Shown: piece after piece, positions 1 to 64,000 of the stretch
Layout: every line of letters starts with the position of its first letter
How positions within the stretch are numbered: the first letter of the stretch is position 1
Source: an uncultured Gammaproteobacteria bacterium
GTDB lineage: Bacteria; Pseudomonadota; Gammaproteobacteria; DRLM01
DNA: 64,000 nt
Reading direction: 5' to 3'
Assembly: GCA_963729605.1 (NCBI GenBank)
Contig: CAVSNY010000005.1
Location: forward strand, 96,001 to 160,000
Notes under the pieces: generated by a model
Databases searched by the model: none
Seen by the model: only the letters and a program-made list of their open reading frames with translations
Told to the model about the DNA's origin: nothing
Translations under genes and position numbers: made by a program

Positions 1-16
1 ATAAAATACCCGGCAC

Positions 17-1071
17 GGTGATTTTTCCGATATGGCGAGTGTTGCATGGCTTCTTCCATCTGCGGGAGAAGGACATGAATGGCGCATCGGAAAATAATGC
101 GGGCTGAATAAACGATCAGCGGAATGGACCCCCGCCGGTTCAACAAAGAGCAAACCACCCCGGCCCTGCGGGCCACCCCTCCTTGTAACAAGGAGGGGAG
201 AACATTACAAACAACGACCACGCACGGGGTTAGTTCGCGGTGCAGATCAAACTCCGATACCCCCCTCCCCTCCGAAGAGAGAAATATTTCGACGTCCCCG
301 CGCGACGCTCGCACGATCAAGCTCGACAACTCCCCTCCTCTCCGAGGAGGGGTGGCCCGCAGGGCCGGGGTGGTGCGCATCAAAATCATCCGCCCTCGAA
401 TCACTCAATACCGCCATTGCCACTGCACATCCACGTGATTTTCCGATATGGCGGGTGAGAGAAATATTTCGACGTCCCCGCGCGACGCCTGCACGATCAA
501 ACTCCGATGACTCCCCTCCTCTCCGAGGAGGGGTGGCCCGCAGGGCCGGGGTGGTGCGCATCAAAAATCATTCGCCCTCGAATCATTCAATACCGCCATT
601 GCTACTGCACATCCAGGTGATTTTTCCGATAGGGCAGGTGTTACATGGCCTCTTCATCTGCGGGAAAAGAGCATGAATGGCGCATCGGAAAATAATGCGG
701 GCTGAATTAACGATCAGCGGAATGGACCCTCGCCGGTTCAACAAAGAGCAAACCACCCCGGCCCTGCGGGCCACCCCTCCTTGTAACAAGGAGGGGAGAA
801 CATTACAAACGGCGATCACGCACGGGAGTTAATTCGCGGCGCGGATCAACTCCGATAACTCCCTGAGAATCGAAACCGGCCGCCGCGTTGTAATAGCGTT
901 AATTCCGCGGTGCAGATCAAACTCCGACAACTCCCCTCCGAAGAGAGGAATATTTCGACGTCACCGTGCGGCACTTGCGCGATCAAACTCCGATAACTCC
1001 CCTCCTCCCCGAGGAGGGGTGGCCCGTAGGGCCGGGGTGGTGCGCATCAAAATCATTCGCCCTCGAATCAT
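17..1071. repeat. Mosaic REP-like (BIME/REPIN-like) repeat cluster downstream of the wzi-like gene
   Basis: Palindromic unit ACCACCCCGGCCCTGCGGGCCACCCCTCC-n-GGAGGGGA forward at ~154-198 and ~752-797, reverse at ~331-374, ~512-555 and ~998-1041. The block at ~17-240 is repeated at ~616-840. Confidence 0.9.
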
Positions 1072-2532
<1,461 letters not shown>

Positions 2533-2690
2533 GATGGAGAACAATCCCTGGTCCTTTTGGTGAATGAGGAAACCGCTGAATTTATGTCCCGTTCCTCGTA
2601 TTGGAAAATGGAGGAAACGGGCGAAAGGCGTCAAACACGCTCTTGCCCCCGCAACCCCGCCCGGCAAGAGGGCAAAACGAAGGGGTTGGT

Positions 2691-2797
2691 TTAATCTTAA
2701 ATTCCCCGTGACAAGCCGCGCGGACAAGGCGATAGGGGATTCTCCCCTTGAGCAGGCGCGGAGATCCGTTCCCCGTGCGCGGTCAGACCTATTTAAT
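2691..2797. repeat. Dispersed ~110-135 bp repeat element, copy 1 (degenerate)
   Basis: Shares TTAATCTTAAATTCCC...GCGCGG...CCCC..GCGCGGTCAGAC.ATTTA blocks with 33798-33927 and 38222-38356. Confidence 0.5.
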
Positions 2798-2850
2798 CCA
2801 ATCCTCCGGCATTTTTCCACGAATCCCGCTTCAAGGAAACCCGCGCGGAC

Positions 2851-2878
2851 AAAAAAACGGGCGCCTGCGGGCGCCCGT
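2851..2878 (-). terminator. Rho-independent terminator of comEA
   Basis: Minus strand reads ACGGGCGCC-CGCA-GGCGCCCGT followed by a T run. Confidence 0.8.
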
Positions 2879-2929
2879 GTAATTTCAAACTATAAACTGC
2901 TTACAACAATTTTAAATATCCATCACGGA

Positions 2930-3214
2930 TCAACGAACAGGCTTGGCCTCGCCCACGGTGATCACCTCGCGGTTCATCTCGACGAGTTTCTTGCCGATGC
3001 CGCTCACCCCCGCCAACTGATCAAGGGATTTAAACGGTCCGTGTTTCTTACGATGCTCGACGATGGCCTCCGCCTTGGCCGGCCCCACACCCTTGAGTAT
3101 CTTCGCCAAGGTTTCGGCGTCGGCGGTATTGATATTCACCGAACTGCTTGCCGCCATGGCCATGGCGGCACCGCTCAACAACAAGGCAAACAGCGTTTTT
3201 TGAATAAACTTCAT
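2930..3214 (-). CDS. comEA: ComEA-family helix-hairpin-helix DNA-binding protein
   Basis: Signal peptide, then VNINTADAETLAKILKGVGPAKAEAIVEHRKKHGPFKSLDQLAGVSGIG (HhH motifs). Confidence 0.92.
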   Translation of the reverse strand: MKFIQKTLFALLLSGAAMAMAASSSVNINTADAETLAKILKGVGPAKAEAIVEHRKKHGPFKSLDQLAGVSGIGKKLVEMNREVITVGEAKPVR

Positions 3215-3470
3215 CCTGAGTCTCCTTCCAATTATGTATTAGGTTTTGGAAGTGTCCTTGGAGACAACCGCGCAACTTTCTATCTCCTCCCTGGCGCTAA
3301 CTCGCACCGCCGTTCAGCCTAGCAGCTCGCATAAAACCCTGCAATTTATCAGTTATAAATTAGCGTGAGGAAATATTCGGATACACAAATTAATAACTCT
3401 TCTCTTTGAGGTGGACTTCGGGTGTATAGCGAATTGAGGCGACGTCCACCCAGCGCGCGCATCTCTGATG

Positions 3471-4370
3471 CACCCCTCCTTATGATAGGGGGGATAAATC
3501 CCAAATACTCCGCCGCACACCCAACTCTGATTTCCAGGACACTCGCTCTGATCCCAGCACTCTCTCTCCGCCCCAGGACACTATCTCTCCCCCGGCTCCT
3601 GAGCAGTACCGAGGCAGATTCCGACGAAATGTTCCTGATACCACGACACACATCATCTCCCCTCCTCTCCGAGGAGGGGTGCCCTCGCAGAGGGCGGGGT
3701 GGTGCGCTCAGGGACCGCTCATCCTCGTACCTTTCCTTCAGCCATTCCGCCGTTCACATGCGATGCCTCTTACAAAAACAAAACCACCCCGGCCCTGCGG
3801 GCCACCCCTCCTTATGAAAGGAGGGGATAAATCCCAAATACTCCGCCGAAAACACTATCGCGCCAAAACATACCGCGCAGTAACACACCGCGCCGAAACG
3901 CTGGGCCGCACGCCCAACTCTGATTTCCAGGACACTCTCTCTGTCACAGGACACCATTCTGATCCCAGCACTCTCTCTGTCCCGGGACACCATCTCTTCC
4001 CCGGCTCCTGAGCAGTACCGAGGCAGATTCCGACGAAATGTTCCTGATACCACGACACACATCATCTCCCCTCCTCTCCGAGGAGGGGTGCCCTCGCAGA
4101 GGGCGGGGTGGTGCGCTCAGGGACCGCTCATCCTCGTACCTTTCCTTCAGCCATTCCGCCGTTCACATGCGATGCCTCTTACAAAAACAAAACCACCCCG
4201 GCCCTGCGGGCCACCCCTCCTTATGAAAGGAGGGGATAAATCCCAAATACTCCGCCGAAAACACTACTGCGCCGGAACATACCACGCCGGAACATACCAC
4301 GCCGAAACACACTGCGCCGAAACACACTGCGCCGAACACTGGGCCGCACGCCCAACTCTGCCCAGGACAT
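3471..4370. repeat. Tandem ~409-bp repeat array carrying paired REP-like palindromes
   Basis: 3591-3857 is essentially identical to 4000-4266 (offset 409). Same REP-like family as 154-1041. Internal 15-bp microrepeats at ~4270-4340. Confidence 0.9.
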
Positions 4371-4457
4371 CCCAAGCAAGGGCCGACAGAAGCGGGGGGT
4401 TATAACCCAAAGAGATGGGACGGTCGCCTCAAGCATCCAATCACAGCCAAGCTCGAA

Positions 4458-5170: not shown

Positions 5171-6328
5171 CTACTCTCCCTCGATACCGGTGATGGGTTT
5201 GACCGTATTCCAACATTTACAACCCGGGCAATGCCAGTGCAAGGCCTTGCCCGCGAAACCGCAGCGTACACACTGGTACACCGGTTTTTCCTCCAACAAT
5301 TGTTCCAGCGTCGTGCGGGCGATATCGAGTTTTTCAGCGGTGGCGGCCGCGTCGCCCGGCGCCATGTCCATGATCCGGGCCAACCCGCGCAACGACGGGC
5401 GGCGACCGAGTTGCGCGGAGAGAAAGGTCAAGGCCGCCGCTTCGCCTTGTTCCAGTCTCACCAAATCGGCGAGCGACAACAGCGCGGTCACGCCGCCGTG
5501 GCGGGACCACACGCCTTCCAGATAACCGAACAATTCCCGGTTGTCGCCGCGCGCGCGATAACACTTCACCAAGGGCGCGATGACCTCCGGCAAATACGCC
5601 GGGTCTTGCCGCTCCACTTGTTGATAGGCGTGGATGGCCGCCTTGGCGTCGCCGGCCGCCGCGGCCAGTTCACCGCGGATCATGCTGGCGCGCGCGCAGC
5701 GTTCGTCGCTCGCCAAGGCCTTTTTGAGCAGGCGCGAGGCCAACTCGGCATCACCCTGTTCGCGCGCATGTTCGGCCTGTTCGCAATAAAACTGAGCGAT
5801 CATGGGTTCCATCGCCTGCCCCGTCACCGCCTGCAAACGGCGGGCGGCCTCGACGGCCTGCTCCCATTCCTTCTCCTGCTGATAGACATCGCTCAATAAG
5901 GCCAGCGCGCGCGGCAGATGCATATCCATCTCGATCAACTCGCGGCACAAGCCCTCGGCGCGGTCGAGCAGACCGGCGCGCATATAATCCTGGGCCAACT
6001 CCAACAGGGCTTGCGCGCGCTGGTTGCCGTTGAGGGTGGGACGCGCGATGAGATTTTGATGGATACGAATGGCCCGATCGACTTCGCCGCGCTGGCGGAA
6101 TAGATTGCCCAGCGCGAGATGGATCTCCACCGTGTCGCTGTCCACTTCCAACATGCGGACGAAACATTCGATGGCCTTGTCGGGCTGTTCATTCAGAAGA
6201 TAGTTGAGGCCGGTGAAATAATCGCGCGACAAAAACGGCGGCGCCGAGTTGCGTTGAGCGCTGCGTTTGGCCAGTATCCAACCCGAGGCGGCCGCTACCG
6301 GCAGTAACAGCCATAGGACTTCATTCAT
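5171..6328 (-). CDS. lapB: Lipopolysaccharide assembly protein B (TPR repeats, rubredoxin-like C-terminus)
   Basis: N-terminal [33 protein letters not shown]-terminal CVRCGF...WHCPGC; lapA-lapB-pyrF synteny. Confidence 0.96.
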
Positions 6329-7283: not shown

Positions 7284-8963
7284 CTAGCCGTTATTATTGT
7301 TTCCCATCTGTTCCTTGAGCAAGTCGCCCAAATTGGTGCCGCTGCCAATGGTGGACCGGCTGTAACCTTCCAGCACCTCGGCCTCTTCATCGCTGTCCTT
7401 GGACTTGATGGAGAGAATGATGCTGCGGTTCTTGCGATCGACGCCCATGAACTTGGCTTCCACCTTATCACCGACGTTCAATATCGAACGGGCATCCTCG
7501 ACGCGGTCGCGGGACAATTCGGAGGCGCGCAGGGTGCCTTCCACGCCGTCGGCGAGTTCAATGATCGCGCCTTTGGCGTCCACTTCCTTCACCACACCGT
7601 TGACGATGCTGCCCTTGGGATGCTCGGCCACGTAGTTGGACCAGGGATCCTGTTCCAGCTGCTTGACGCCCAGCGAGATGCGTTCGCGTTCGGAGTCGAT
7701 GGCCAACACCACGGCTTCCACTTCGTCGCCCTTCTTGTAGTTGCGCACGGCTTCTTCGCCGGGCATGTTCCAAGACAAGTCGGACAAATGCAGCAGACCG
7801 TCGATACCGCCGTCCAGGCCGACGAAGATACCGAAGTCGGTGATGGATTTGATATTGCCGACCACGCGATCACCCTTCTTGTGGGTGACGGCGAATTCAT
7901 CCCAGGGATTGGCCTTGCATTGCTTCATGCCGAGCGAGATGCGGCGGCGCTCCTCGTCGATGTCCAACACCACCACTTCCACCTCGTCGCCCAGGTGCAC
8001 GACCTTGGAGGGGTGAATATTCTTGTTGGTCCAATCCATCTCGGAGACGTGCACCAGACCTTCCACGCCGTCTTCGATCTCGACGAAGCAGCCGTAGTCG
8101 GCGATGTTGGTGACCTTACCGAACAGGCGGGTGGTGACCGGGTAACGGCGGGCGATATCGACCCAGGGATCTTCGCCCAACTGTTTCAGGCCCAGCGAGA
8201 CGCGTTGACGCTCGCGGTCGAACTTCAATACCTTCACGTCGATCTCGTCGCCGACGTTCACCACCTCGGAAGGCTGTTTGACGCGTTTCCACGCCATGTC
8301 GGTGATGTGCAGCAGGCCGTCGACGCCGCCCAGATCCACGAAGGCGCCGTAATCGGTGAGGTTCTTGACGATACCCTTGATGACTTGGCCTTCCTGGAGG
8401 TTTTCCAGCAGATTTTCGCGCTCGGCGCCGCTCTCCTGCTCGACCACCGCGCGGCGGGACACCACCACGTTGTTGCGGCGGCGATCCAGTTTGACGACCT
8501 TGAATTCCAGTTCCTTGTTCTCGAGGTAGCTGGGGTCGCGCACCGGACGCACGTCCACCAAGGAGCCGGGCAAGAAGGCGCGGACATCGTCGATCTCGAC
8601 GGTGAAACCACCTTTGACTTTGCCGGTGAGGATACCCTTGACGGTCTCGCCCGCTTCCAATGCCTTCTCGAGATAAATCCAGGTGCGGGCGCGACGCGCC
8701 TTTTCGCGTGACAGACGGGTTTCGCCAAAACCGTCTTCCATCATTTCCAACGCGACTTCGATCTGATCGCCGACCGCCACTTTTTCCATTCCGTTGTCAT
8801 CGCGGAACTGCTCGATGGGAATGGCGCTCTCGGATTTCAAACCGGAGCTGACGATGATTACATCGGGGCGGATTTCCACGATAGTGGCGGTAACGATAGC
8901 GCCCGGCCGCATTCTCTGTGCCGCCAGACTCTGTTCAAATAGTTGTGCAAAGCTTTCGCTCAT
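7284..8963 (-). CDS. rpsA: 30S ribosomal protein S1
   Basis: [10 protein letters not shown] start, repeated S1 domains ([24 protein letters not shown]); cmk-rpsA-ihfB synteny. Confidence 0.98.
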
Positions 8964-9102
8964 TGATGAATGACCCTTCGGTCCGGCGAACGCCGAAACC
9001 GGTTATGCCGCATCATGCGGCTATGTTAAAACCCGCCTGCCCGGAGACAAAACGGAACCAGAAAAAATCAGCACGGGTGAAACCCATGCCATGCCCTTGA
9101 GT

Positions 9103-9813
9103 TTAGCTTGTTTTGCGCGCCGCTTCCCGCCACAGAGCCAACACCTGCTTCACAACCTCATCGATGGGAATGCCGGTCGTATCGACCACTATCGCATCGT
9201 CGGCGGGCCGCAATGGAGATACGCTCCGTTCGCTGTCGCGCGCATCGCGTATTTCCAGATCGTTCAAAATGCGCTGTAGGTTAGCATCTATCCCTTTTTC
9301 GTTCAACTGGTTATAACGGCGCCGGGCGCGTTCCTCGCGGCTCGCGGTGAGAAACAGCTTGAGATCGGCCTCCGGAAACACCACCGTGCCCATATCCCGC
9401 CCGTCCGCCACCAGCCCCGGCGCCACCCGAAAGGCCCGCTGGCGTTCCAATAACGCCTGGCGCAGCGTCGGCAAAGCCGCCACCACCGAGGCATCCCGCC
9501 CGCATTGTTCGGTACGGATGGCGTTACCCACGTCTTCGCCCTCCAAGACGATGCGGCTCTCGACGCCGCCGTCCACCGCCTCGAACTCCACGTCCAAATG
9601 AGCGGCCAAGGTCGCCAGTGACACCTCGTCTTCCAGGGGCACGGCATGATGCCGCGCCGCCAGCGCCACCAGACGGTAAAGCGCCCCGCTGTCGAGGAAA
9701 TGCCAACCCAATCTGCCCGCCACCAACCGGCTCAACGTCCCCTTGCCGGAACCGCTGGGCCCGTCGATGGTGATCACCGGGATGGCCTGCTGTTCACGTC
9801 CTTGCTCCGTCAC
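9103..9813 (-). CDS. cmk: Cytidylate kinase
   Basis: [14 protein letters not shown]-loop, [19 protein letters not shown]. Confidence 0.97.
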
Positions 9814-53858: not shown

Positions 53859-55028
<1,170 letters not shown>

Positions 55029-55144
55029 CGCAGGCGGTCAGACCGGCTACTCTTATGAGGGCTAATGGTTTTCGAGTCGCGTCCGAAAACTCTGTAAGAC
55101 CCCTGCTGGTGGCCTGTAATCCTACATATCGCAAAAGGGTGGCT

Positions 55145-55549
55145 ATGGAACAGGACGATATCTCAAAAGAACGGCGGCTGTTCTCCCGTATTCCTTTTAA
55201 TGGCAGCGTCACCCTCATCAGCGACGAAGGCCGTTGGGTCTGCAACCTGGTGGACATTTCGCTCAAAGGCGTCTTGATCGACCAACCCGAGGGGTGGGCC
55301 GGCAAAATAGGGCAGTCCTTCCAATTGGAGATCAGCCTGAGCGAGGGCAAGGTCAACATCACCATGGATGTGGCGACTTCCCACATCCGCGATCAACGCA
55401 TCGGTTTCTGCTGCACCCACATCGATCTTGAAAGCATCACCCATCTGCGCCGCCTGCTGGAACTCAACATCGGCGACGAAGAACAAATGAACCGCGAACT
55501 CTCCGCGTTGATTTTCAATATCTGCAACGTCTCTTCCAACGGGCGCTGA
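55145..55549 (+). CDS. PilZ-domain protein
   Basis: ERRLFSR (RxxxR) and DISLKG (DxSxxG) motifs, IDLESITHLRRL.ELN tail. Confidence 0.9.
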   Translation: MEQDDISKERRLFSRIPFNGSVTLISDEGRWVCNLVDISLKGVLIDQPEGWAGKIGQSFQLEISLSEGKVNITMDVATSHIRDQRIGFCCTHIDLESITHLRRLLELNIGDEEQMNRELSALIFNICNVSSNGR

Positions 55550-55665
55550 GCGGCGCCTGTGGCGTCACGCGTACACCAAATCACCTTGCGTTCGTCTCCA
55601 CCGGTTTGATAAAACACCCCGCTGAACAAGCGCCGGTTCGGCGCATCGTCTCATTAGAATAAATT

Positions 55666-57834
55666 TTAGCCGGCGGCCGCGCATTGCCGGGTTGGATGCA
55701 GCCGCGGCTGGCCGTGATGAGTATGAGCGGTATCCCAGTCTGCTTGCCCGACCGCGTCGAGCACGATGACGCGATCGGCGCTGGCGATGGTCTCGGGCCG
55801 ATGCGCGACGATGACGCGGGTCAATTTGAGTTGGGCGATGGCCTGGTTGACCTGCTGTTCGCGGGCGAGGTCGAGATGGCTGGTGGCTTCGTCCAGAAAA
55901 AGGATTTTGGGATTTTTATAAAGGGCGCGTGCCAGCAGCAGGCGCTGACGCTGACCGCCCGACAGCGCCGTTCCCATATCGCCGATCAGGGTGTGATAGG
56001 CCATGGGCATGGCCATGATGTCCTGTGCCACCGCGGCCAGTTGCGCACAATAATGAATACGTTCCAGTTCCGGTTGCGGGTCGAAGAAAGCGATGTTATC
56101 GGCGATGGAGCCGGCGAACAGTTGATCTTCCTGCATGACGGTACCGATGATTCCGCGGTACTGTTCCACGCCCAGCCGCGAAACCGGAACGCCGCCCACC
56201 AGCACCTCGCCACCGCTGGCCGGCAACAGGCCCAGCATGATCTTCAACAAGGTCGTCTTACCGCAACCGGAAGCACCGACGATCGCCACCGACTCGCCCT
56301 CCGCAATCCGCAGATTGACGTCATTAAGCACGCAAGACTCCGCCGCCGCGTAGCGAAAACTCAGATTCCTGACCTCGATATCGTAACGCCGCGGCATGGG
56401 CGCAGACCGGATATCGGCATCCGCGTCCTCGGGCTCGGTCAGGGCGACGTCGGCGACCCGCTCGGTGTGCAGCCCCAGCATCTTCAACTCTATGCCCTTT
56501 TCGATCAGTCCGATGATGCGCGCGATGAACTGCTGTTTATAAGCGATGAAGGCGAACAACATCCCCACCGAAAATCCGCCTTGTAGCACCAGGCCGGCGC
56601 CCAGGCCGATCACCGCGACGTTCTCGGCGCCGAACAAGACACCATTGACCGCCTTGAACACAATGTGCAGCCGTTGTACACGAATACCGGCGTTGAGGTG
56701 ATCGGCGGCGAGATTCTGATAAGCGGCGCGCCGGTCGGGTCCCCGATTGAAAAGTTTGAGGCTTTGCACGCCGCGCACGCTCTCCAAAAAATGCGACTGC
56801 TGCTTGGCGGCGCGCAGGATCTGTTCTTCTTCGGCCTCGCGCAAGGGGCGATACCACACCCAGCGCACCGCGCCGTATAACAAGGCCGCCGCGCATACCA
56901 CCAGCGCCAGCGGCGGACTATATATCCACATCACTATCAACGTCGCGATCACCATCAATCCATCCACTACCGCCTCGACGAAGCTGCTGGTCAAGGTGCG
57001 TTGGATGGCGTTGAGCGATTCGAAGCGCGACACCACATCGCCGAGGTGGCGTTTTTCAAAATAGTCCATCGGCAGGCGCAGCAGGTGGCGGAATAGATTG
57101 GCGATCAACTGGAGATTGATCTGTGAACTGATCACCATCAGCACCCAGGAACGCAATGCCGTCACCGCCGTCTGCATCAGCGCCAACAGCAAGAAACCCA
57201 ACGCCAGCACGGTGATCAGGTCGTGGTCTTGCGCCACCAGGGCATGATCCACCACCAGTTGCATGAACCAGGGGGCGGCGATGGCGAAGACCTCCAATAC
57301 CAGGGCGATGGATAAGACTTGCAGCAGGGCGCGTTTCAGACCGACCGGTTTGCCCAGCAAGGCGGCGAGTGAAATGCGCCGGCGCTGGGTACGCGGCACG
57401 AAATCGTGGCTGGGCGCCAATTCGAGCGCCACCCCGGTGAAATGGCGCGAGAGTTCCGCCAGGTTCAGTTGACGGCGACCGCGCGCCGGGTCGTGGATCA
57501 CCACCGCGTTCTTGCGCACCGCGACCAGGACCACGAAGTGATTCATGTCCCAATGCAGAATCGCCGGACAAGGCAGTCGCGCCAAGGCCGCCAATTCCAG
57601 CCGCACCGGGCGCGCCGATAACTGCAAGCGCCCGGCGATCTGGATGAGCTGGGCCAGGGCCGAGCCCTTGGCGGAAATCGCGTGCTGACCGCGCAAGCTG
57701 GCGAGATCGACATCATGGCCGTGATGACCCGCCACCATGGCCAGACAGGCGAGACCGCACTCCGCCGCCTCGGTCTGCATCAACAGCGGTGTCGTGGATT
57801 TACCGCCGAAATTAAGCATGCTGATCGTTTCCAT
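55666..57834 (-). CDS. Peptidase-containing ABC transporter (C39; CvaB/MchF-like)
   Basis: QTEAAECGLACL (catalytic Cys), HWDMNHFVV (His), IHDPA (Asp), TM domain, GASGCGKT, LSGGQRQR, LDEATS. Confidence 0.96.
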   Translation of the reverse strand: METISMLNFGGKSTTPLLMQTEAAECGLACLAMVAGHHGHDVDLASLRGQHAISAKGSALAQLIQIAGRLQLSARPVRLELAALARLPCPAILHWDMNHFVVLVAVRKNAVVIHDPARGRRQLNLAELSRHFTGVALELAPSHDFVPRTQRRRISLAALLGKPVGLKRALLQVLSIALVLEVFAIAAPWFMQLVVDHALVAQDHDLITVLALGFLLLALMQTAVTALRSWVLMVISSQINLQLIANLFRHLLRLPMDYFEKRHLGDVVSRFESLNAIQRTLTSSFVEAVVDGLMVIATLIVMWIYSPPLALVVCAAALLYGAVRWVWYRPLREAEEEQILRAAKQQSHFLESVRGVQSLKLFNRGPDRRAAYQNLAADHLNAGIRVQRLHIVFKAVNGVLFGAENVAVIGLGAGLVLQGGFSVGMLFAFIAYKQQFIARIIGLIEKGIELKMLGLHTERVADVALTEPEDADADIRSAPMPRRYDIEVRNLSFRYAAAESCVLNDVNLRIAEGESVAIVGASGCGKTTLLKIMLGLLPASGGEVLVGGVPVSRLGVEQYRGIIGTVMQEDQLFAGSIADNIAFFDPQPELERIHYCAQLAAVAQDIMAMPMAYHTLIGDMGTALSGGQRQRLLLARALYKNPKILFLDEATSHLDLAREQQVNQAIAQLKLTRVIVAHRPETIASADRVIVLDAVGQADWDTAHTHHGQPRLHPTRQCAAAG

Positions 57835-57836
57835 GC

Positions 57837-59084
57837 TTATAATTTTCCAGTCAAGCTGAATAAAGGATCGAATACCCATTCGATGATCCGCCGCTTGTCC
57901 AACCACACATCGGCATCCAGCAACATGCCCGATTGCAAGGCGAGTTCTTGGCGATAGGCTTTAATATTTTGTTCCTGCAAAGCCACGGTCACACGATAAA
58001 CCGGCTCGCGCAACGGCACCGGCAAAACGGCCTCGCCGGGCACGATGAGGGTCTTGGCGATCTCCTTGATACGGCCTTGCGCACTCCCGAAACGTTGATA
58101 GGGAAAGGCCTGATACCGCAGCGCGACTTGCTGCCCGGTCTCGATGAAACCGATGGCGCGGCTCGGCACCAACAACTGCGCTTCCAACACCGCCCGCGCG
58201 GGGAGAATGGTCAACAAAGGCGCACCCGGCCCGGCGGTCTGGCCGCGATCCACCAGGATGGCGGTCACCGTGCCGGCGGCGGGCGCGCTGATCACGATGC
58301 TGCGCCGCGCTTCATATTCGGTGAGTTGTTGGTTCAAGGCTTCGACATCACGTTCAATCGCCGCGCGGCGGCTGTCGGCCTGCGGGTCGTAACCCGCCAG
58401 CTCACGACGCGCATCGCCGAGATTCCGCGCCAGCGCACTGCGCTCGCGGCGTAAGGATTCGAGCCTAGATTTTTGTTCCAAGACTTGCTCGCGTTTTTCC
58501 TGAACATGGACCTCCGCCACAAAACGCTTGGCCGCGAGTTCACCATAACGGGCCGCGGTCTGCTCCACGCTGGCCAGATGTTGAGTCTGAGTATTCAAGA
58601 CGCTATCCAGTTGCGCCAATTCATTTTCGAGACCGCGCAGACGTTCTTGCAGACGGTGCTTTTGATTGACGCTGATGCGGTCTTGATTCAACAAATCGCT
58701 ATTGAGGCTGTCGCGCCGCTGTTTGAGACTGCTGATGACGGCCTGTTGCGAAGCCGGGGTATCGGTACTGCCGTGATCGGTGGATAAGACGAACAAGATA
58801 TCGCCCTGCCGCACCGTTTGTCCTTCGCTGACCCGCTTCTCCACCAAGGTGCCGGTGGCGGGGACATAGACTTTGATCAGCCCTTGGTCGGGCGCGAGGT
58901 ATCCGGTCACATGGGCCTTGCGCGTATAGTGGCCGAAACAGGCAAAAACGATGAGGGCGCCCATGATCAATAGCGCGATCGCGGTGAGTATATAAGTGCC
59001 GGGAGACGTCGATACGATTACCGTACCAAGACTACGCTCGCCTTGCGCCTCTAGCGCTTCGTGACGAAATAAGGGCATTGCCAT
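57837..59084 (-). CDS. HlyD-family membrane fusion protein (CvaA/MchE-like)
   Basis: LFR.EAL start, single TM, YTRKAHVTG.L.P, coiled coil, VPSRAIGFI..GQ.V.LRYQAFPYQRFG, IIEWVFDPL. Confidence 0.95.
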   Translation of the reverse strand: MAMPLFRHEALEAQGERSLGTVIVSTSPGTYILTAIALLIMGALIVFACFGHYTRKAHVTGYLAPDQGLIKVYVPATGTLVEKRVSEGQTVRQGDILFVLSTDHGSTDTPASQQAVISSLKQRRDSLNSDLLNQDRISVNQKHRLQERLRGLENELAQLDSVLNTQTQHLASVEQTAARYGELAAKRFVAEVHVQEKREQVLEQKSRLESLRRERSALARNLGDARRELAGYDPQADSRRAAIERDVEALNQQLTEYEARRSIVISAPAAGTVTAILVDRGQTAGPGAPLLTILPARAVLEAQLLVPSRAIGFIETGQQVALRYQAFPYQRFGSAQGRIKEIAKTLIVPGEAVLPVPLREPVYRVTVALQEQNIKAYRQELALQSGMLLDADVWLDKRRIIEWVFDPLFSLTGKL

Positions 59085-59127
59085 CGGGCGTTCTCCTTGA
59101 ATGCCGCGCATCCGCGATTCCGAAGAC

Positions 59128-60186
59128 TCAGGCCGAAATCGCGCGGGATACCATTGAGTTCCACCCCGGCGGCAACTGCGCCTGCTGCCTGCCGATCCGC
59201 GCGACCAGGTCGTACCAGCTTAGAAAAAAGGGCTTGCTTGCCTGGGTGACGCTGGCATAGGCGTCGCCGCACAGTTGATAAAAGGCGGCCTGTCGCTGGC
59301 TACGCCATGCCGCCATCAGATTTTCCAGGCGCGCCTGTTTGAGGTTGCCCAGCGCATAAGCCCGCGGAAAACCATACTGCATCGGTACTACCGTTCCATC
59401 CGCTTCGATGATCAAAGGAGAAACGAGGTCCGCGAAGCGTGTTTCCGCCGCGGCGGTGGTGGGTGCGGCATACACCATGGTCGGGTTGGCCCGCAAAACT
59501 TCGCTGGAAATCAGGTCGATTTGTATCGACAACTTGCCCTCCAACATCTGCTGCATCCGCCGTCCCAGCAGCCAAGCATACGCAGTCTCAATATCATCGG
59601 GGCTCGCGCCCTTCATCTGTTTCTGGGCGTAACCCACTTCGTCGAGCGGGTGGACCTGCACCAGCTTTGCGCCTTGTTCGAGAGCGAATTGCACGACCCA
59701 TTGCAACTCGTGGAGATTGTGCTGGGTCAGCGTAAAAATAAAGCCGAAATTCAGTTTATATTCACGCAGAGACTCCAGGCGTGATGCCATGAGTTCAAAG
59801 GCCCGCGACGAGCCGCGGATGGTATTATGCGACTCGGGCACGCCATCGACGCTGATCGCGATAAGATCGGTGACCCCGGCCAAGGCATCGAGACGGCGGG
59901 CGTCGAGCAGCATGCCGTTACTGGCGATAGCCGTCTGCATGCCGCAGACCTTGGCATGCGTCAGCAGCGCGGCCAATTGCGGATACATCACGGGTTCGCC
60001 GCCGGAGATACTGGCCCAGTTGTAACCCGCTGCAACGGCATCGTTTAGCGCATTGAACAGCAGCGCGCTGTCCAACATGTCGCGTTCATCTGGAGATGAG
60101 GAGGAATAGCAATGGAGACAACGCAGATTGCAACGTCTGGTCGGGTGAATCTGTACCACTCGAGTTGATCCGGTCGGCCCCATCAT
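59128..60186 (-). CDS. Radical SAM enzyme, putative RiPP maturase with a Cys-less SPASM/twitch-like C-terminus
   Basis: CNLRCLHC motif, SGGEP, SNG, ISVDG..ESH..IRG; C-terminal LIIEADGTVVPM...LGNL. Confidence 0.93.
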   Translation of the reverse strand: MMGPTGSTRVVQIHPTRRCNLRCLHCYSSSSPDERDMLDSALLFNALNDAVAAGYNWASISGGEPVMYPQLAALLTHAKVCGMQTAIASNGMLLDARRLDALAGVTDLIAISVDGVPESHNTIRGSSRAFELMASRLESLREYKLNFGFIFTLTQHNLHELQWVVQFALEQGAKLVQVHPLDEVGYAQKQMKGASPDDIETAYAWLLGRRMQQMLEGKLSIQIDLISSEVLRANPTMVYAAPTTAAAETRFADLVSPLIIEADGTVVPMQYGFPRAYALGNLKQARLENLMAAWRSQRQAAFYQLCGDAYASVTQASKPFFLSWYDLVARIGRQQAQLPPGWNSMVSRAISA

Positions 60187-60216
60187 ACTATCCTCCTCGT
60201 TGTCGCAAGAACGGGT

Positions 60217-60444
60217 TTAACCCAATTTGGCCAGTTGCTTCATTCCACCCAGCTGGGCGGGGTTGGTAGCAGGGAATTGGTTTTGCACCAACAGTTCCGG
60301 CCAGGGGATGCCCTTCGGAAACACGGTGTACCAACCGCTAACGCTGGCGCCGCCGGCCACTTGCTCGATTTCTTCCCGAGTCAAGGTTTCGTAATCGCCG
60401 CACTGCATCCGCAATTGTTCCGAACCACGTAATTTTGTTGACAT
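60217..60444 (-). CDS. RiPP precursor peptide with double-glycine leader (75 aa)
   Basis: AAGGAGAG RBS before ATG 60444; leader ends LTREEIEQVAGG; core ASVSGWYTVFPKGIPWPELLVQNQFPATNPAQLGGMKQLAKLG; first gene of the operon with the rSAM, HlyD and PCAT genes. Confidence 0.88.
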   Translation of the reverse strand: MSTKLRGSEQLRMQCGDYETLTREEIEQVAGGASVSGWYTVFPKGIPWPELLVQNQFPATNPAQLGGMKQLAKLG

Positions 60445-61160
60445 GACGCTCTCCTTAAATTGATGAATTAACAAAATTGCCCGGTACACGGCGGCAATTC
60501 GTGCTTGATCCGGCCGCACACCATCGCCGCCTACGTTAGGCGATCCACCCAACGAGGCGCTGTGATGAATTGCCACACGAGCTTGTGATTAATTCACACC
60601 CGTGGGAATAGCAAAAATGCGGTAGAAGGTTTACGGAGCCACCCTGCGTAGGGATACGACGAAGAACAGGGCATTTTTTATGAAACACCAAAACAGTGTT
60701 TATCTGAAGAAAGAATAACGGATTAATCGGCGTGATAGCGCACGGACAATGCATTCCTGCGCTAGCTTAAGAAGAGAATCGCACCTCTCGACACGCTCTC
60801 CATGCTTGGACACACCCATCGCATGTATCCCCGCGCAAGCCGCGGGGAGTTTTAAGATTAAAAGTGGAGACCGGTCTCGATGAATCACTCGATGAAGGAA
60901 GTGTTCATGTGACGTTAAGCCAGGCGATGTGTCAGCTCCATCAGAAAATTATTCGCACATCCGTATTAACAATCGACCTCGGTCTTGCGACCTTGCTTCC
61001 TTTTTGTCCCAGGACATCCTGCATGCACCCGGGGCGCGACTACGTAACGTATCGGGAAGCATCACGATGACTGCCCCTCTTCGTGCCTAGTCCGACTTTT
61101 GTCGTTCTCGCTTCGCCTCCTCGGCTCGTCGGTAGTTATCACACCGGCATCGGCAGCCAT

Positions 61161-61177
61161 CGCACCATTTTTGTCCG
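61161..61177. promoter_or_regulatory. Possible NtrC-type upstream activator site
   Basis: CGCACCATTTTTGTCCG versus consensus TGCACCANNNTGGTGCA (4 mismatches), about 110-125 bp upstream of the sigma54 promoter. Confidence 0.35.
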
Positions 61178-61285
61178 ACTTCTCCATAAAAAATTTCATA
61201 AAGCAAGTAGATTTTTTGGCGCGTTCGAAAAAAATCTATCATGCGATTAAATAGATATCTTCAAATAAAGGATATAACTCGATCA

Positions 61286-61301
61286 TGGCATCAAGATTGC
61301 T
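61286..61301 (+). promoter_or_regulatory. Sigma54 (-24/-12) promoter
   Basis: TGGCAT-CAAGA-TTGCT, near consensus TGGCAC-N5-TTGCW, 35 bp upstream of ATG 61336. Confidence 0.8.
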
Positions 61302-61335
61302 GAAAACAACTTTATGCTTCTGAGAGGACATAACG

Positions 61336-61575
61336 ATGCATCAACAAATTGTGATTGTTGACGACGCTAATGAACGCACTATTCTCATCGCACAAGCTCT
61401 CCGAGAGAGCGGTTACGGCGTGACTACTTTATATAGCAGAGATAACAAGGCGCTATATAAAAAACTATGCCGATTGAAGGCGGACTTTTTATTGATCGGC
61501 GACGATGTCGTCATTGATCTCAAGTCGGATTACGGCAGACATGTATTAAACGAAATGGCCATCTCCGGTCAGTAG
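61336..61575 (+). CDS. Small receiver-like protein resembling the N-terminus of NasT/ANTAR regulators
   Basis: IVIVDD..ER..LI..AL.ESGY.V start, GAGAGGA RBS and sigma54 promoter; only 79 aa with no output domain. Confidence 0.6.
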   Translation: MHQQIVIVDDANERTILIAQALRESGYGVTTLYSRDNKALYKKLCRLKADFLLIGDDVVIDLKSDYGRHVLNEMAISGQ

Positions 61576-61631
61576 TTTTTTCCATTGTAAATTTTTACTG
61601 TTTCTCTTCAAATTCATGCCAAGACTACAAG

Positions 61632-62693
61632 TTAAACATCTTGTATTTTTGGAATGTTAATTCGCAATTCAAATTTTTCACTATCAAGGTTTAACAAGGT
61701 CACGCCCCCCAGATTAGCCAGGTCGTTTCTAGCCATATAAACGGCGACCGTATTTCGATCAATCGCGAATTCGGCAAGAACGGTGTTAAACATCATATCC
61801 AAATCTTTATCCGAAAATTCATTACGAGCGCCGTTCATTGATACTACATAATGATCATTCTCCATAAGGGCACTTCCGTATAGGGTTCCACCTTTTTTTG
61901 TAGCCTCAACAGTCGCCATTACAATATGAAATAATGAACGGCGGATGGCAGACTTTTCGCATTTGACAGGCATTGAATCCTGAGATGGCCGCCAGACAAA
62001 TTTAATACCTTTAAGTCGTGCCGTTGTTTTAACAAGGCCATACACATCTTCAAGTATTTCTCTTATATCGTAAGCTTCCTGGACGCCAGGCGTAGGGTCC
62101 AATATTTCGAGTAACATTTGCAACGATTTGTCAAGATTATAAACTTGCTTGATCGGCATCCTTAAAAGACTTTGCGACCCCTCTTCAATTACACTTGGAG
62201 CTCTTTTGTATGCTAAGTCTACGGCGCTCTTAGTTAGCTCCAAATCCACCACGATGCTATTTAAACGCCCCCTGATGTCGTGTACAAACCCTGGAAATAC
62301 ATTTGAAAATATCCTATAACAGGCGGCCTGATATAAGTCGGTAATATCAATGCATGAATCAATTACATTTTTCTCCACCATGAACTGATAACGGTCGCTT
62401 GATTCATCTATTCGAAATAGATGACATCTAAATGTATTCCGCAGACCCGCATCGTTTTCAAACATCGTGAAATTAGAATAATTAGACCCCTTATCAGCCA
62501 TGTGACCGATTGCTTCCACGATACGAAAAATCACCGCCTTAGAGATAATGCCTTGAAAATGTTCCGTCCCATCATTGTCAAGACAGCCCTTTTTTAATAA
62601 AGTCAATATAATTTGGCCGACGGCTATCGTTCCACCTCCATCGGCCCTTACGAGACCGGCATTAGAGATAATCGGAACCACTTTTAATGCCAT
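61632..62693 (-). CDS. Atypical histidine-kinase-like protein (HisKA H-box, degenerate HATPase)
   Basis: FVHDIRGRLNSI H-box and kinase-like spacing, but no recognisable N/G1/G2 boxes; GAAGGA RBS before ATG 62693; divergent from a response regulator. Confidence 0.6.
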   Translation of the reverse strand: MALKVVPIISNAGLVRADGGGTIAVGQIILTLLKKGCLDNDGTEHFQGIISKAVIFRIVEAIGHMADKGSNYSNFTMFENDAGLRNTFRCHLFRIDESSDRYQFMVEKNVIDSCIDITDLYQAACYRIFSNVFPGFVHDIRGRLNSIVVDLELTKSAVDLAYKRAPSVIEEGSQSLLRMPIKQVYNLDKSLQMLLEILDPTPGVQEAYDIREILEDVYGLVKTTARLKGIKFVWRPSQDSMPVKCEKSAIRRSLFHIVMATVEATKKGGTLYGSALMENDHYVVSMNGARNEFSDKDLDMMFNTVLAEFAIDRNTVAVYMARNDLANLGGVTLLNLDSEKFELRINIPKIQDV

Positions 62694-63027
62694 TGGATAT
62701 ATTCCTTCGGTATCATCCATGCGTGCTCACAAATATACCCATATAAATCATAATTAATTACTTGCGTACTCTTTTAGATCGATATTCTATATAATCAGCC
62801 AGCATCTCAATTTAAAGCAATTTTTATCCCAACTTAATTTAATATGTTTTTCACTGAAACTCAGATAAGCCAAACCTGGCTAACTTACCGGATTGCTTAA
62901 CCCGGCTAATTTTGAGATACCAGGATCTCCCTTCCTGGTAAAATCGCCTTCACAAAATTTCTCTGCAATGATGTTGATTGGCAGCGCATAAAAGTACTTT
63001 AACTGCAAAGTTTCATGGATGACCCAT

Positions 63028-64000
63028 ATGCCATACGCCTTGATAGTCGATGACGATGTAGACTTTACGCCTTCTTTAGCACGACTCATTCAGCAAGAAG
63101 GATACAGTGTTCGTATTGCAAAAACTTTGGAAGAAGCGCGTCAGGAGTTGCGGGAAGGTATACCGGACGTCGCCCTTATAGATCTATTGCTTCCCGACGG
63201 GGATGGCATTCAACTGGTGCGAGAATTAACGCTTACTGGTTCAACCAAGGTTTTAGTCATCACTGGTTATGCGGGGGTTGATAACGCAGTAGCCGCGCTT
63301 CGCGCCGGCGTCACTGATTATCTGCAAAAACCATTCGATATTGATCAACTAAAAAAACAACTGCGTATTACAAAAAATGAACTGGCGAACCATACTAACA
63401 CCAGCGCTCTTTCTGAGGGCATGGAGATCAATAGTCTACTGGGACAATCCCCACAAATACAGACGGTTCACAATCTTATCGAAAAAGTATCTTCTACCGA
63501 AACCACTGTTTTCATATACGGTGAAAGTGGAACTGGAAAAGAACTTGTAGCCCATGCAATACACAGCATGAGTGCGCGCAGTAACCAGCCTTTTATTGCC
63601 ATTAATTGTGCTGCAATTTCCCCTCAATTAATCGCTACCGAATTTTTTGGTCATGAAAAAGGGGCTTTTACCGATGCGCATTCATTGCATAAAGGATGCT
63701 TTGAACGCGCAGAGGGTGGTACTTTATTTCTTGATGAAGTAACCGAAATGCCCATCGACCTACAGGTGCAGCTTCTCCGCGCTTTGGAATCAAGGCGTAT
63801 TATGCGGGTTGGAGGAACTAAAGAAATCGATATCGATATTAGAATTATTGCGGCAACTAACCGCCCTCCCCATTATGCGGTTGAGGAAGGGAAACTTCGC
63901 GAAGATCTGCTGTTTCGTCTAATGGTATTTCCAATTTATTTACCGCCGCTACGAGAGCGTCAAGGCGACATTATTCATCTCGCCAAGAATTTCTTATCCG
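63028..64000 (+). CDS. NtrC-family sigma54-dependent response regulator (partial; runs off the window)
   Basis: Read directly because it is absent from the ORF track: MPYALIVDDD receiver, IDLLLPDGDG, GESGTGKE, INCAA, FGHEKGAFTDA, GTLFLDE, RIIAATN, REDLLFRL. Alternative start at 63019. Confidence 0.93.
   Translation, partial: MPYALIVDDDVDFTPSLARLIQQEGYSVRIAKTLEEARQELREGIPDVALIDLLLPDGDGIQLVRELTLTGSTKVLVITGYAGVDNAVAALRAGVTDYLQKPFDIDQLKKQLRITKNELANHTNTSALSEGMEINSLLGQSPQIQTVHNLIEKVSSTETTVFIYGESGTGKELVAHAIHSMSARSNQPFIAINCAAISPQLIATEFFGHEKGAFTDAHSLHKGCFERAEGGTLFLDEVTEMPIDLQVQLLRALESRRIMRVGGTKEIDIDIRIIAATNRPPHYAVEEGKLREDLLFRLMVFPIYLPPLRERQGDIIHLAKNFLS

Follow-up and report, generated by a model that had tools for sequence, protein, structure and literature searches.

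A radical SAM enzyme encoded between a double-glycine peptide and its exporter: a candidate new class of modified, secreted peptide

What does a compact operon make when its one modifying enzyme, a radical S-adenosylmethionine (SAM) enzyme, reaches the cut-off of no curated family? Four genes raise this question on the minus strand of a 64,000-nucleotide stretch of DNA from an uncultured gammaproteobacterium (contig CAVSNY010000005.1; the whole analysed stretch is called the window). At positions 55666-60444 they encode, in this order, a precursor peptide, a radical SAM enzyme, a HlyD-family adaptor, and a peptidase-containing ATP-binding transporter (PCAT), with gaps of 30, 43, and 2 nt. New peptide chemistry comes mainly from radical SAM enzymes. 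An earlier note on this DNA proposed that the operon makes a secreted, radical SAM-modified peptide of about 43 aa that belongs to no recognised class. Our analysis supported both parts. The operon probably makes and secretes a peptide modified by the radical SAM enzyme, a statement about the system as a whole that leaves the chemical step aside; it draws on the motif linkage described next, the double-glycine leader, and the C39-type PCAT, from which the modification itself is inferred. The enzyme scored below all NCBIfam cut-offs, and the peptide and its relatives matched no Pfam or NCBIfam model, making the system a candidate for a new class of radical SAM-dependent peptide made by the ribosome and then modified post-translationally (RiPP).

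The relatives of the enzyme provided the strongest evidence. One genome per species was scanned, which yielded at least 578 confirmed relatives; the locus counts refer to the best 80 of these. Nearly the whole enzyme was matched in 54 loci (L011-L064), and the N-terminal core alone in the other 26, which were NirJ-like. The 54 full-length loci came from Acidobacteriota, Planctomycetota, Cyanobacteriota, Actinomycetota, Bacteroidota, Pseudomonadota, Nitrospirota, Myxococcota, Verrucomicrobiota, and Gemmatimonadota. In 43 of them an open reading frame (ORF) carrying the motif of the window peptide lay directly upstream on the same strand (E 3e-8 to 4e-32), as detected with a hidden Markov model (HMM) built locally from 29 upstream ORFs; the same model found a partner in 0 of the 26 NirJ-like outgroup loci. 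The co-occurrence of enzyme homologs with FPxGIPxP-containing peptides, which the earlier note had suggested as a check, was therefore observed, both at these 43 loci and among short peptides with double-glycine leaders.

The partners were unannotated proteins of about 100-135 aa that shared the RGSxKL and FPxGIPxP[D/E] motifs with the window peptide. The first motif, RGS[E/D]KL (KLRGSEQL in the window), stood at the N-terminus of many long partners, and the loop motif occurred in two copies, the second typically VFPYGIPxP[D/E] (VFPKGIPWPE in the window). When 39 partners were aligned with MAFFT, two Gly were the only invariant columns. Among 42 long partners, the Gly of hairpin 2 (position 0) was present in all 42 and was followed at +1 by I (27), T (8), L (3), V (3), or K (1), that is, by I/T/L/V in 41/42. 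Around it, Pro occupied +2 in 33 and +4 in 23, Asp or Glu +5 in 35, Tyr -1 in 15, Pro -2 in 27, and Phe -3 in 28; the Gly of hairpin 1 was present in 39/42. An AlphaFold2 model of a partner (pLDDT 79.7, with the C-terminal half above 90) ran helix, helix, beta-hairpin, helix, beta-hairpin, which predicts an (alpha-beta-beta)x2 arrangement with each invariant Gly in a hairpin loop. Foldseek found nothing in the PDB at E<=1e-3 for this fold. The best matches by VIA-wide (Z 7.0) were periplasmic domains of XcpY, PulL, and EpsL, and since VIA-wide rated them a common arrangement they offered no functional lead. No Pfam model (24 partners) or NCBIfam model (10 partners) was matched, and a partner query of the ESM Atlas gave no usable match. 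Of 1306 candidates in a profile search, at least 338 clusters reached E<=1e-5; none had a Pfam domain, and wherever the source gave a name it was 'hypothetical protein'. No fusion of partner and enzyme was seen, the partner motif being absent in five longer homologs (P0015, P0069, P0079, P0084, and P0108).

The window operon carries the same two motifs in a shorter peptide. Its features, all on the minus strand, are:

60451-60456, minus strand: Shine-Dalgarno sequence AAGGAG, 6 nt 5' of the precursor ATG (from the sequence)
60217-60444, minus strand: precursor gene, 75 aa (from ORF and sequence)
60349-60444, minus strand: leader, residues 1-32
60409-60435, minus strand: codons for KLRGSEQLR (residues 4-12), RGSxKL-type motif and proposed enzyme-recognition element
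60220-60348, minus strand: core, residues 33-75, followed by the stop codon at 60217-60219
60295-60321, minus strand: codons for FPKGIPWPE (residues 42-50), the hairpin-loop motif kept across the family, where modification is proposed
59128-60186, minus strand: radical SAM enzyme gene, 352 aa, GGAGGA preceding the ATG (Pfam PF04055, Radical_SAM, 64 bits)
60109-60132, minus strand: CX3CX2C motif of the enzyme, residues 19-26
57837-59084, minus strand: HlyD-family periplasmic adaptor, 415 aa (Pfam HlyD_3, 54 bits, HlyD_D23, and Biotin_lipoyl); likely start ATG 59084 (MAMPLF..., preceded by AAGGAGA), alternative start 59111, stop 57837
55666-57834, minus strand: PCAT, 722 aa (Pfam Peptidase_C39, 127 bits, ABC_membrane, 157 bits, and ABC_tran, 111 bits); likely start ATG 57834 (METISML...), the mechanical ORF start GTG 57906 overlapping HlyD, stop 55666
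about 57409-57789, minus strand: C39 domain of the PCAT
55760-60597, minus strand: conserved cassette, running from the promoter region almost to the PCAT gene's end (blastn against genome G001 of the same genus)

The ORF list and the sequence confirmed what the earlier note had described here, namely four co-oriented, tightly spaced genes and a 75-aa peptide with its own ribosome-binding site. The leader of the precursor ends LTREEIEQVAGG (...EIEQVAGG) and by inspection fits the double-glycine consensus, with hydrophobic residues at -4, -7, and -12 in addition to the Gly-Gly end. The 43-residue core, ASVSGWYTVFPKGIPWPELLVQNQFPATNPAQLGGMKQLAKLG, has no Cys, no Tyr-Gly, and no WxWxKxF, again as claimed. 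Pfam and NCBIfam held no family for the precursor (0 NCBIfam families). In a collection of 5.8 billion proteins it had 9 homologous clusters in which VF..GIPWPEL was invariant, and an alignment of 10 precursor-type sequences kept FPKGIPWPE as well as K4, R6, G7, S8, and L11 without exception; Gly45 is the counterpart of the invariant partner Gly. Because the four genes recur as a block in G001 and the precursor has these 9 homologous clusters, the cluster is not a chance set of ORFs. The leader also contains Cys15 (60400-60402). PCAT-type precursors keep 1-2 leader Cys (MQC, VQC, ACC) just after the RGSxKL block, where long partners have none, and since the leader is removed this Cys has no apparent role.

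A Pfam scan of neighbours (116 proteins from 35 loci, with 70 further neighbours outside the scan) found no third conserved gene beside the enzyme-partner pair, and HlyD with a C39 PCAT at one of the 35 loci only, L016 in a Nitrosomonas metagenome-assembled genome (MAG). Orthologs of the window PCAT and HlyD (local phmmer, >900 and >400 bits) were present in three loci only: L091 of G001, L016, and the metagenome locus L093, where PCAT and HlyD are divergently oriented. Short double-glycine-type peptides with the motif were encoded at five loci, these three together with L092 and L015, a Nostoc contig. The L016 peptide, of 62 aa, reads ...LTPEEISQIAGAG and then ...FFPNGIPAF...; that of L092 reads ...TVAGG and then AGLYAYFPKGIPSPGLL..., that of L093 ...AVAGG and then ASISGSAYAYFPKGIPWPDIF..., and that of L015 ...LTPEELQELEQVKGG and then two GIPA loops. 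In this PCAT-type clade the sole partner-like gene encodes a peptide of 62-75 aa with a cleavable export leader. A quick maximum-likelihood tree of 58 enzymes, in which internal stops in three rows were read as X, grouped the five proteobacterial or metagenomic enzymes of the double-glycine type (SH-aLRT 90) and nested them among the long-partner forms, while the Nostoc enzyme fell outside this group. The window operon is a rare derived branch, its substrate reduced to helix plus hairpin and combined with a double-glycine leader and a PCAT/HlyD exporter. The precursor thus corresponds to one alpha-beta-beta unit in which the N-terminal block is kept, the helix (LTxEE...A) is now the leader, and the hairpin is now the core. 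Among 400 genomes sampled evenly from the class, the window genome was the sole match at E<=1e-50, a measure of rarity within that sample, and a metagenome scan with a single protein gave 3 loci. Because a folded partner of about 100-135 aa without an exporter is the rule among the relatives, the family as a whole may be a protein-modification system, with the window operon as its derived, exported offshoot.

Some of these loci had neighbours of another kind. At L011, L012, L013, L027, L030, L031, and L033 the enzyme-partner cassettes lay amid defence-type or mobile genes (TIR_2, nSTAND1-WD40, DNA methylase, PIN, HigB, patatin, a type I restriction-modification specificity subunit, and transposases). 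PADLOC had no model for the enzyme-partner pair and matched the enzyme only through the generic pVip core. A second, different radical SAM gene lay just downstream of the pair in L033, a gammaproteobacterial MAG (8139-9176 of that locus, minus strand).

The enzyme itself belongs to the radical SAM superfamily, with 64 bits against a cut-off of 29.5 for PF04055 and the motif CNLRCLHC at residues 19-26, and is single-copy in the window genome. None of the NCBIfam families went further: all 25 shown were far below cut-off and aligned with the N-terminal core alone, the best being NirJ (95.5 bits against 515), and eight relatives of the enzyme likewise stayed below every curated cut-off. The enzyme fell into none of the named maturase families with which it was compared in full (SPASM/twitch by its cysteines, sactipeptide/ranthipeptide, PoyD-type, DynA, and PqqE/MftC). 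The closest solved proteins by sequence were PqqE (E 3e-12) and SkfB. In Foldseek searches of the PDB with an AlphaFold2 model (pLDDT 95.3), SkfB (6efn, E 1.8e-14, TMq 0.65) came first, followed by SuiB (TMq 0.64), PqqE, and anSME, with DesII and BlsE also among the nearest folds (TMq 0.56-0.65); the predicted fold is that of the SPASM/twitch neighbourhood. The cysteines of that class were absent. No auxiliary-cluster cysteines were present in the SPASM-like C-terminal domain, and Pfam gave no SPASM match. Across a 52-sequence alignment C19, C23, and C26 were the only invariant Cys, and among 231 family sequences the CX3CX2C positions alone reached 95%, the next being position 306 at 74%. Cys306 is present in the window enzyme and in 172/231 members; 55/231 enzymes have no Cys at any of three semi-conserved positions. 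The stretch PLIIEADGTVVPMQYGF...ALGNL resembles the SPASM hairpin and GN motif with the Cys replaced. No N-terminal extension was found in the AlphaFold2 model and no match to a RiPP recognition element (RRE) in Pfam.

The enzyme family is large. An exhaustive HMMER search gave 307 representatives (50% identity) at E<=1e-30, and a second search gave 1562 clusters (90% identity) at E<=1e-20 among 8000 scored candidates, almost all of about 330-360 aa and named 'radical SAM protein' or by generic COG names in the source; an ESM Atlas query likewise returned generic 'radical SAM protein' clusters and nothing more specific. Assignment to the viperins was rejected, since the PADLOC pVip matches spanned profile positions 1-176 of 257 at 79 bits, and the NCBIfam viperin model, at 70 bits against a cut-off of 180, matched the general radical SAM core alone. 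A complex prediction from the enzyme and precursor alignments with SAM and 4Fe-4S scored 0.03 against a mark of 0.32 and gave no contacts, which is uninformative either way.

PCATs with a C39 domain cut after Gly-Gly and export their peptides together with HlyD and TolC. The C39 domain of the window aligned with the double-glycine protease LahT150 (PDB entry 6mpz, E 7e-21) and also with ComA and PCAT1 (8hf7 and 4ry2). Conserved in these alignments were the Gln of MQTE, the Cys of ECG, the His of NHF, and the Asp of DPA, which we take to be the catalytic residues of the family; the Cys, His, and Asp had already been called intact. With 127 bits to PF03412, a double-glycine leader in the adjacent peptide, and an adaptor recognised as HlyD by Pfam, the transporter belongs to the double-glycine PCATs. 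More specific models were not reached: HlyD scored 151 bits against 208.65 for TIGR01843, and the best model for the PCAT, TIGR03796 (NHLP bacteriocin export ABC transporter), gave 503 bits against 853. The cluster encodes no TolC, as the earlier note had remarked, and the window genome has TolC-family genes elsewhere (PF02321; 18 domain matches above cut-off in about 9 ORFs). The same note had seen no immunity gene, and none was conserved, only the four genes being kept between the window genome and G001. In its double-glycine leader, C39 positions, and HlyD the operon resembles class II microcins, NHLP-type export, and LahT, with TolC acting in trans here. It differs from these systems in having a radical SAM gene between peptide and exporter and no immunity gene. 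The extra conserved N-terminal block of the window leader (KLRGSEQL.MQC), shared with non-exported partners, is also unlike known double-glycine leaders. Because no immunity gene was found, an antimicrobial or bacteriocin role is unsupported, and it is equally possible that the product is a signal or has another extracellular role.

We propose that the enzyme would bind the 75-aa precursor through the helix region at its N-terminal RGSxKL motif and that its single [4Fe-4S]/SAM site would generate the 5'-deoxyadenosyl radical. The radical would then abstract a hydrogen in the loop F42-P-K-G45-I46-P-W-P-E50, a site suggested by conservation; in the related folded partners this loop is predicted to be the tip of a beta-hairpin. 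The C39 domain would cut after Gly32, and the 43-aa core would leave through the PCAT, HlyD, and a TolC-type channel encoded elsewhere. The parent would be the widespread two-gene system, and the helix of a reduced helix-hairpin substrate would have come to serve as the double-glycine leader. The chances seem to us evenly balanced for the fuller proposition that a SPASM-derived family, having lost its auxiliary clusters, modifies the hairpin tip at or beside the Gly in (alpha-beta-beta)x2 proteins of at least 10 phyla and was exapted, with a double-glycine leader and PCAT, into a RiPP class.

For the chemical step itself our first choice, held tentatively, is a redox-neutral change, most likely epimerisation of Ile46, which follows the invariant Gly. 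The hairpin could then be locked by a D-Xaa-Pro turn. Such pairs are well known for forming tight turns, as in gramicidin S, and one would fit the hairpin tip and the frequent Pro at +2. According to the review PMC8326336, the known C-C cyclases cannot do without their auxiliary clusters, and in radical SAM epimerases a protein Cys gives back an H atom. These two properties set the ranking of outcomes: epimerisation first, then a cross-link, then chemistry at the Gly C-alpha as a clearly less likely third, with the remainder of our expectation left to something else. The redox-neutral chemistry of the known epimerases (PoyD/OspD of proteusins and EpeE/YydG of epipeptides) would fit an enzyme that lacks auxiliary clusters, and they act mostly on hydrophobic, beta-branched residues, the class that follows the invariant partner Gly. 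The window enzyme has one extra semi-conserved Cys (C306) that may be set beside theirs, and EpeE structures were among its fold matches (8ai4 and others, E about 2e-11); EpeE presumably carries a SPASM-type cluster, and the PDB titles of the matches say '[4Fe-4S] clusters'. Membership in the PoyD type was rejected. Neither the precursor nor 10 long partners had an NHLP/Nif11 leader (0 NCBIfam families, and none in Pfam), and one Cys is strictly conserved in PoyD homologs according to PMC8326336, versus Cys306 in 172/231 here.

A possible though doubtful alternative is that the enzyme installs an intramolecular cross-link (-2 Da) within or across the hairpin, joining the ring of W38, Y39, F42, or W48, or the carboxylate of Glu50, to C-alpha or C-beta near Gly45/Ile46, in analogy to streptide, darobactin, triceptide, and rotapeptide maturation. 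In its favour, the nearest folds are those of SkfB and SuiB, which install cross-links, and of PqqE; many aromatic residues stand around the motif in the core; and the acidic residue at +5 recurs in 35/42 hairpin-2 loops. Against this, every auxiliary-cluster Cys that the known C-C cyclases depend on is absent, the partners have no invariant aromatic (F at -3 in 28/42, Y at -1 in 15/42), and the DynA and WgkB models gave 53-54 bits against cut-offs of 450 and 650. The known systems compare accordingly. The SPASM/twitch maturases (SkfB, SuiB, PqqE, CteB, and the founding member anSME) share with the window enzyme the TIM-barrel core and the fold of the C-terminal domain, and are likewise encoded beside the presumed peptide substrate; unlike them, the window enzyme has no auxiliary-cluster Cys and no fused or adjacent RRE, and it scored 66 bits against 381 on the PqqE model and 55 against 300 on that of SkfB. 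A PqqE/MftC-type cofactor maturase was also rejected on the MftC model (50.9 bits against 265) and the lack of a PqqD/RRE match, and a sactipeptide or ranthipeptide maturase on the Cys-free core and the StsB, SkfB, AlbA, and PapB models, all far below cut-off. The darobactin operon consists of a precursor, a radical SAM enzyme, and an ABC-type exporter with a HlyD-like adaptor. Darobactin and dynobactin thus follow the same operon logic in a Gram-negative host, with a small precursor, a sole radical SAM maturase, and a trans-envelope exporter. DarE and DynA are SPASM enzymes, unlike the window enzyme, and this assignment was rejected at 53.8 bits against 450 for NF041298 (DynA) and with no motif of the W-x-W-x-K-x-F type in the core. 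Triceptides combine a SPASM maturase with a conserved aromatic-X-X motif; on these two features, which the comparison covered, the SPASM Cys are absent here and no aromatic position is invariant in the partners.

Unlikely, in our estimate, is abstraction of the C-alpha hydrogen of the invariant Gly, in the manner of a glycyl-radical activase acting on a hairpin-tip Gly. Its outcomes might be substitution, hydroxylation, backbone cleavage, or amidation, or a glycyl-radical-like species in the folded partners. In support, the Gly is the sole invariant residue and occurs once per hairpin; the enzyme, with its single cluster, lacks a conserved Cys that could donate H; and in most members the cassette consists of two genes, for the enzyme and a folded partner, beside which no further gene is conserved. 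The invariance of the Gly may nevertheless be structural, as that of a turn residue. Moreover, many of the hosts (Nitrosomonas, Nitrospira, Nostoc, Kitasatospora, and Saccharothrix) are, as we take it, aerobes, in which a glycyl radical, once stored, would be lost; no peptide that is exported could carry such a radical; and no glycyl-radical-activase model was among the best NCBIfam matches shown for the enzyme.

It is improbable that the upstream partners are helper subunits resembling PqqD-like chaperones, with the true substrate of the family elsewhere. The predicted folding of the partners into a compact (alpha-beta-beta)x2 domain, with no protease or exporter near them, would suit such helpers, but the 62-75-aa peptide of the PCAT-type clade, with its cleavable export leader, suits a product and not a chaperone, no partner matched PqqD or RRE models in Pfam, and the predicted partner fold is not a winged helix. 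Least probable of all is that the PCAT exports an unmodified peptide, of class II microcin-like or signalling type, and that the enzyme acts on something else or is a mere neighbour: double-glycine peptides with PCAT and HlyD need no maturase, as class II microcins illustrate, and neither Pfam nor NCBIfam gives the peptide a family, but the enzyme gene lies between peptide and exporter at gaps of 30 and 43 nt, is kept with the peptide in all five PCAT- or double-glycine-type loci with upstream DNA, and belongs to a wider family tied to the same motif in 43/54 loci.

Several observations weigh against a radical SAM-modified, secreted peptide of the kind we favour, with epimerisation as its preferred chemistry. 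Cys306 is missing in 59/231 enzymes, and five of the 231 have exactly three Cys in total, the number needed by the cluster motif, so that the analogy to PoyD/EpeE-type epimerases is weakened. The enzyme lacks an RRE domain. The partner HMM, which also matches the G001 peptide, matched the precursor weakly (E 3.9e-4 in a local search of a few thousand ORFs), so the homology of precursor and partners rests mainly on the shared motifs. No partner was detected by HMM in 11/54 full-length loci; these comprise 2 that encode double-glycine-type peptides, 1 that lacks upstream DNA, 1 with a degenerate candidate, and 7 with nothing recognisable. No immunity gene was found among the genes conserved with G001. 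Most members of the family are without protease or exporter, and its ancestral role may not have been natural-product synthesis. With regard to partner-less loci, L042, L043, L046, and L047 (Saccharothrix/Actinosynnema) form a tight clade of four enzymes with no recognisable upstream partner ORF; their substrate may be encoded elsewhere or be too divergent to detect.

The four genes also behaved as a unit in their genomic setting. G001, one of three other genomes of the same genus, encodes the enzyme at 79% protein identity, and its cassette aligned with window positions 55760-60597 at 76.8% DNA identity over 4890 columns (blastn), with unrelated flanks. By this comparison the cluster appears to be a discrete, mobile unit whose four genes move together. 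The cluster has a GC content of about 0.56-0.61; that of the housekeeping genes flanking it on one side is higher, at 0.63-0.67, and that of the opposite flank is lower, at 0.39-0.47. A scan of the cluster for promoters and terminators gave nothing above the shuffled expectation, and Rfam and tRNA scans of the window gave no match.

Environmental DNA runs contained contigs 95-99% identical to the whole cluster, the pieces in run X1 spanning 55400-60608. Two metatranscriptome runs from one study contained contigs over the precursor and the 5' part of the enzyme gene at 98-99.6% identity: X19 gave a 607-nt contig, 98% identical, over the precursor and the first third of the enzyme gene, and X20 a 231-nt contig with one mismatch at 60216-60446. 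As weak evidence these contigs fit transcription of the cluster, and DNA carry-over is possible. Both contigs end at 60446, where related DNA contigs have a 2-nt insertion behind 60448 and run on; a difference between strains, and not the end of a transcript, could account for this.

Directly upstream of the precursor gene the GC content drops from about 0.60 to 0.39-0.47 (60600-64000). This stretch is probably a separate insertion, because it is absent beside the G001 copy of the cluster. The following features of the window lie outside the conserved cassette:

63019-63999, plus strand: sigma-54-dependent response regulator, open at the window end
61632-62720, minus strand: ORF of 362 aa, no Pfam match
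61336-61575, plus strand: ORF of 79 aa, no Pfam match
54950-55549, plus strand: PilZ-domain gene converging on the PCAT end
1-4400: repeat-rich stretch, with runs of 15-nt periodic sub-repeats
3562-3861 and 3971-4270: 300-nt repeat copies, 98% identical
57-1100: repeats of 172 nt and 110 nt

Parts of the repeat stretch were 78-89% identical to positions 5620-5806 of the same-genus stretch L091, and no tRNA or Rfam family was found in it.

We found no description of the enzyme-partner family in the literature; subscription papers and supplements (PMC10288494, the transporter-based 'RiPP-RaS' atlas) might list it. Published large-scale mining of radical SAM enzymes, as set out in PMC10288494, was filtered by an RRE domain or a neighbouring ABC transporter. 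Because the family has no RRE, no SPASM Cys, and mostly no transporter, filters of this kind would miss nearly all of it. The family is large, tightly tied to a substrate family, and so far unnamed. Its chemistry can be tested directly, given a compact two-gene unit and a defined motif, FPxGIPxP[D/E], in which one Gly is invariant, and the window operon offers a natural short, exported substrate of 43 aa that is suited to mass spectrometry and NMR. Were the modification new, it would add a RiPP class as well as a protein modification; were it epimerisation, the family would be a third, independent lineage of peptide epimerases. The operon resembles known radical SAM RiPP export cassettes, and there is a realistic chance that the modification it represents is new and common to a widespread family of small proteins. 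Together, the linkage of enzyme and motif across many phyla most likely signals a modification of peptides or proteins that has not been described.

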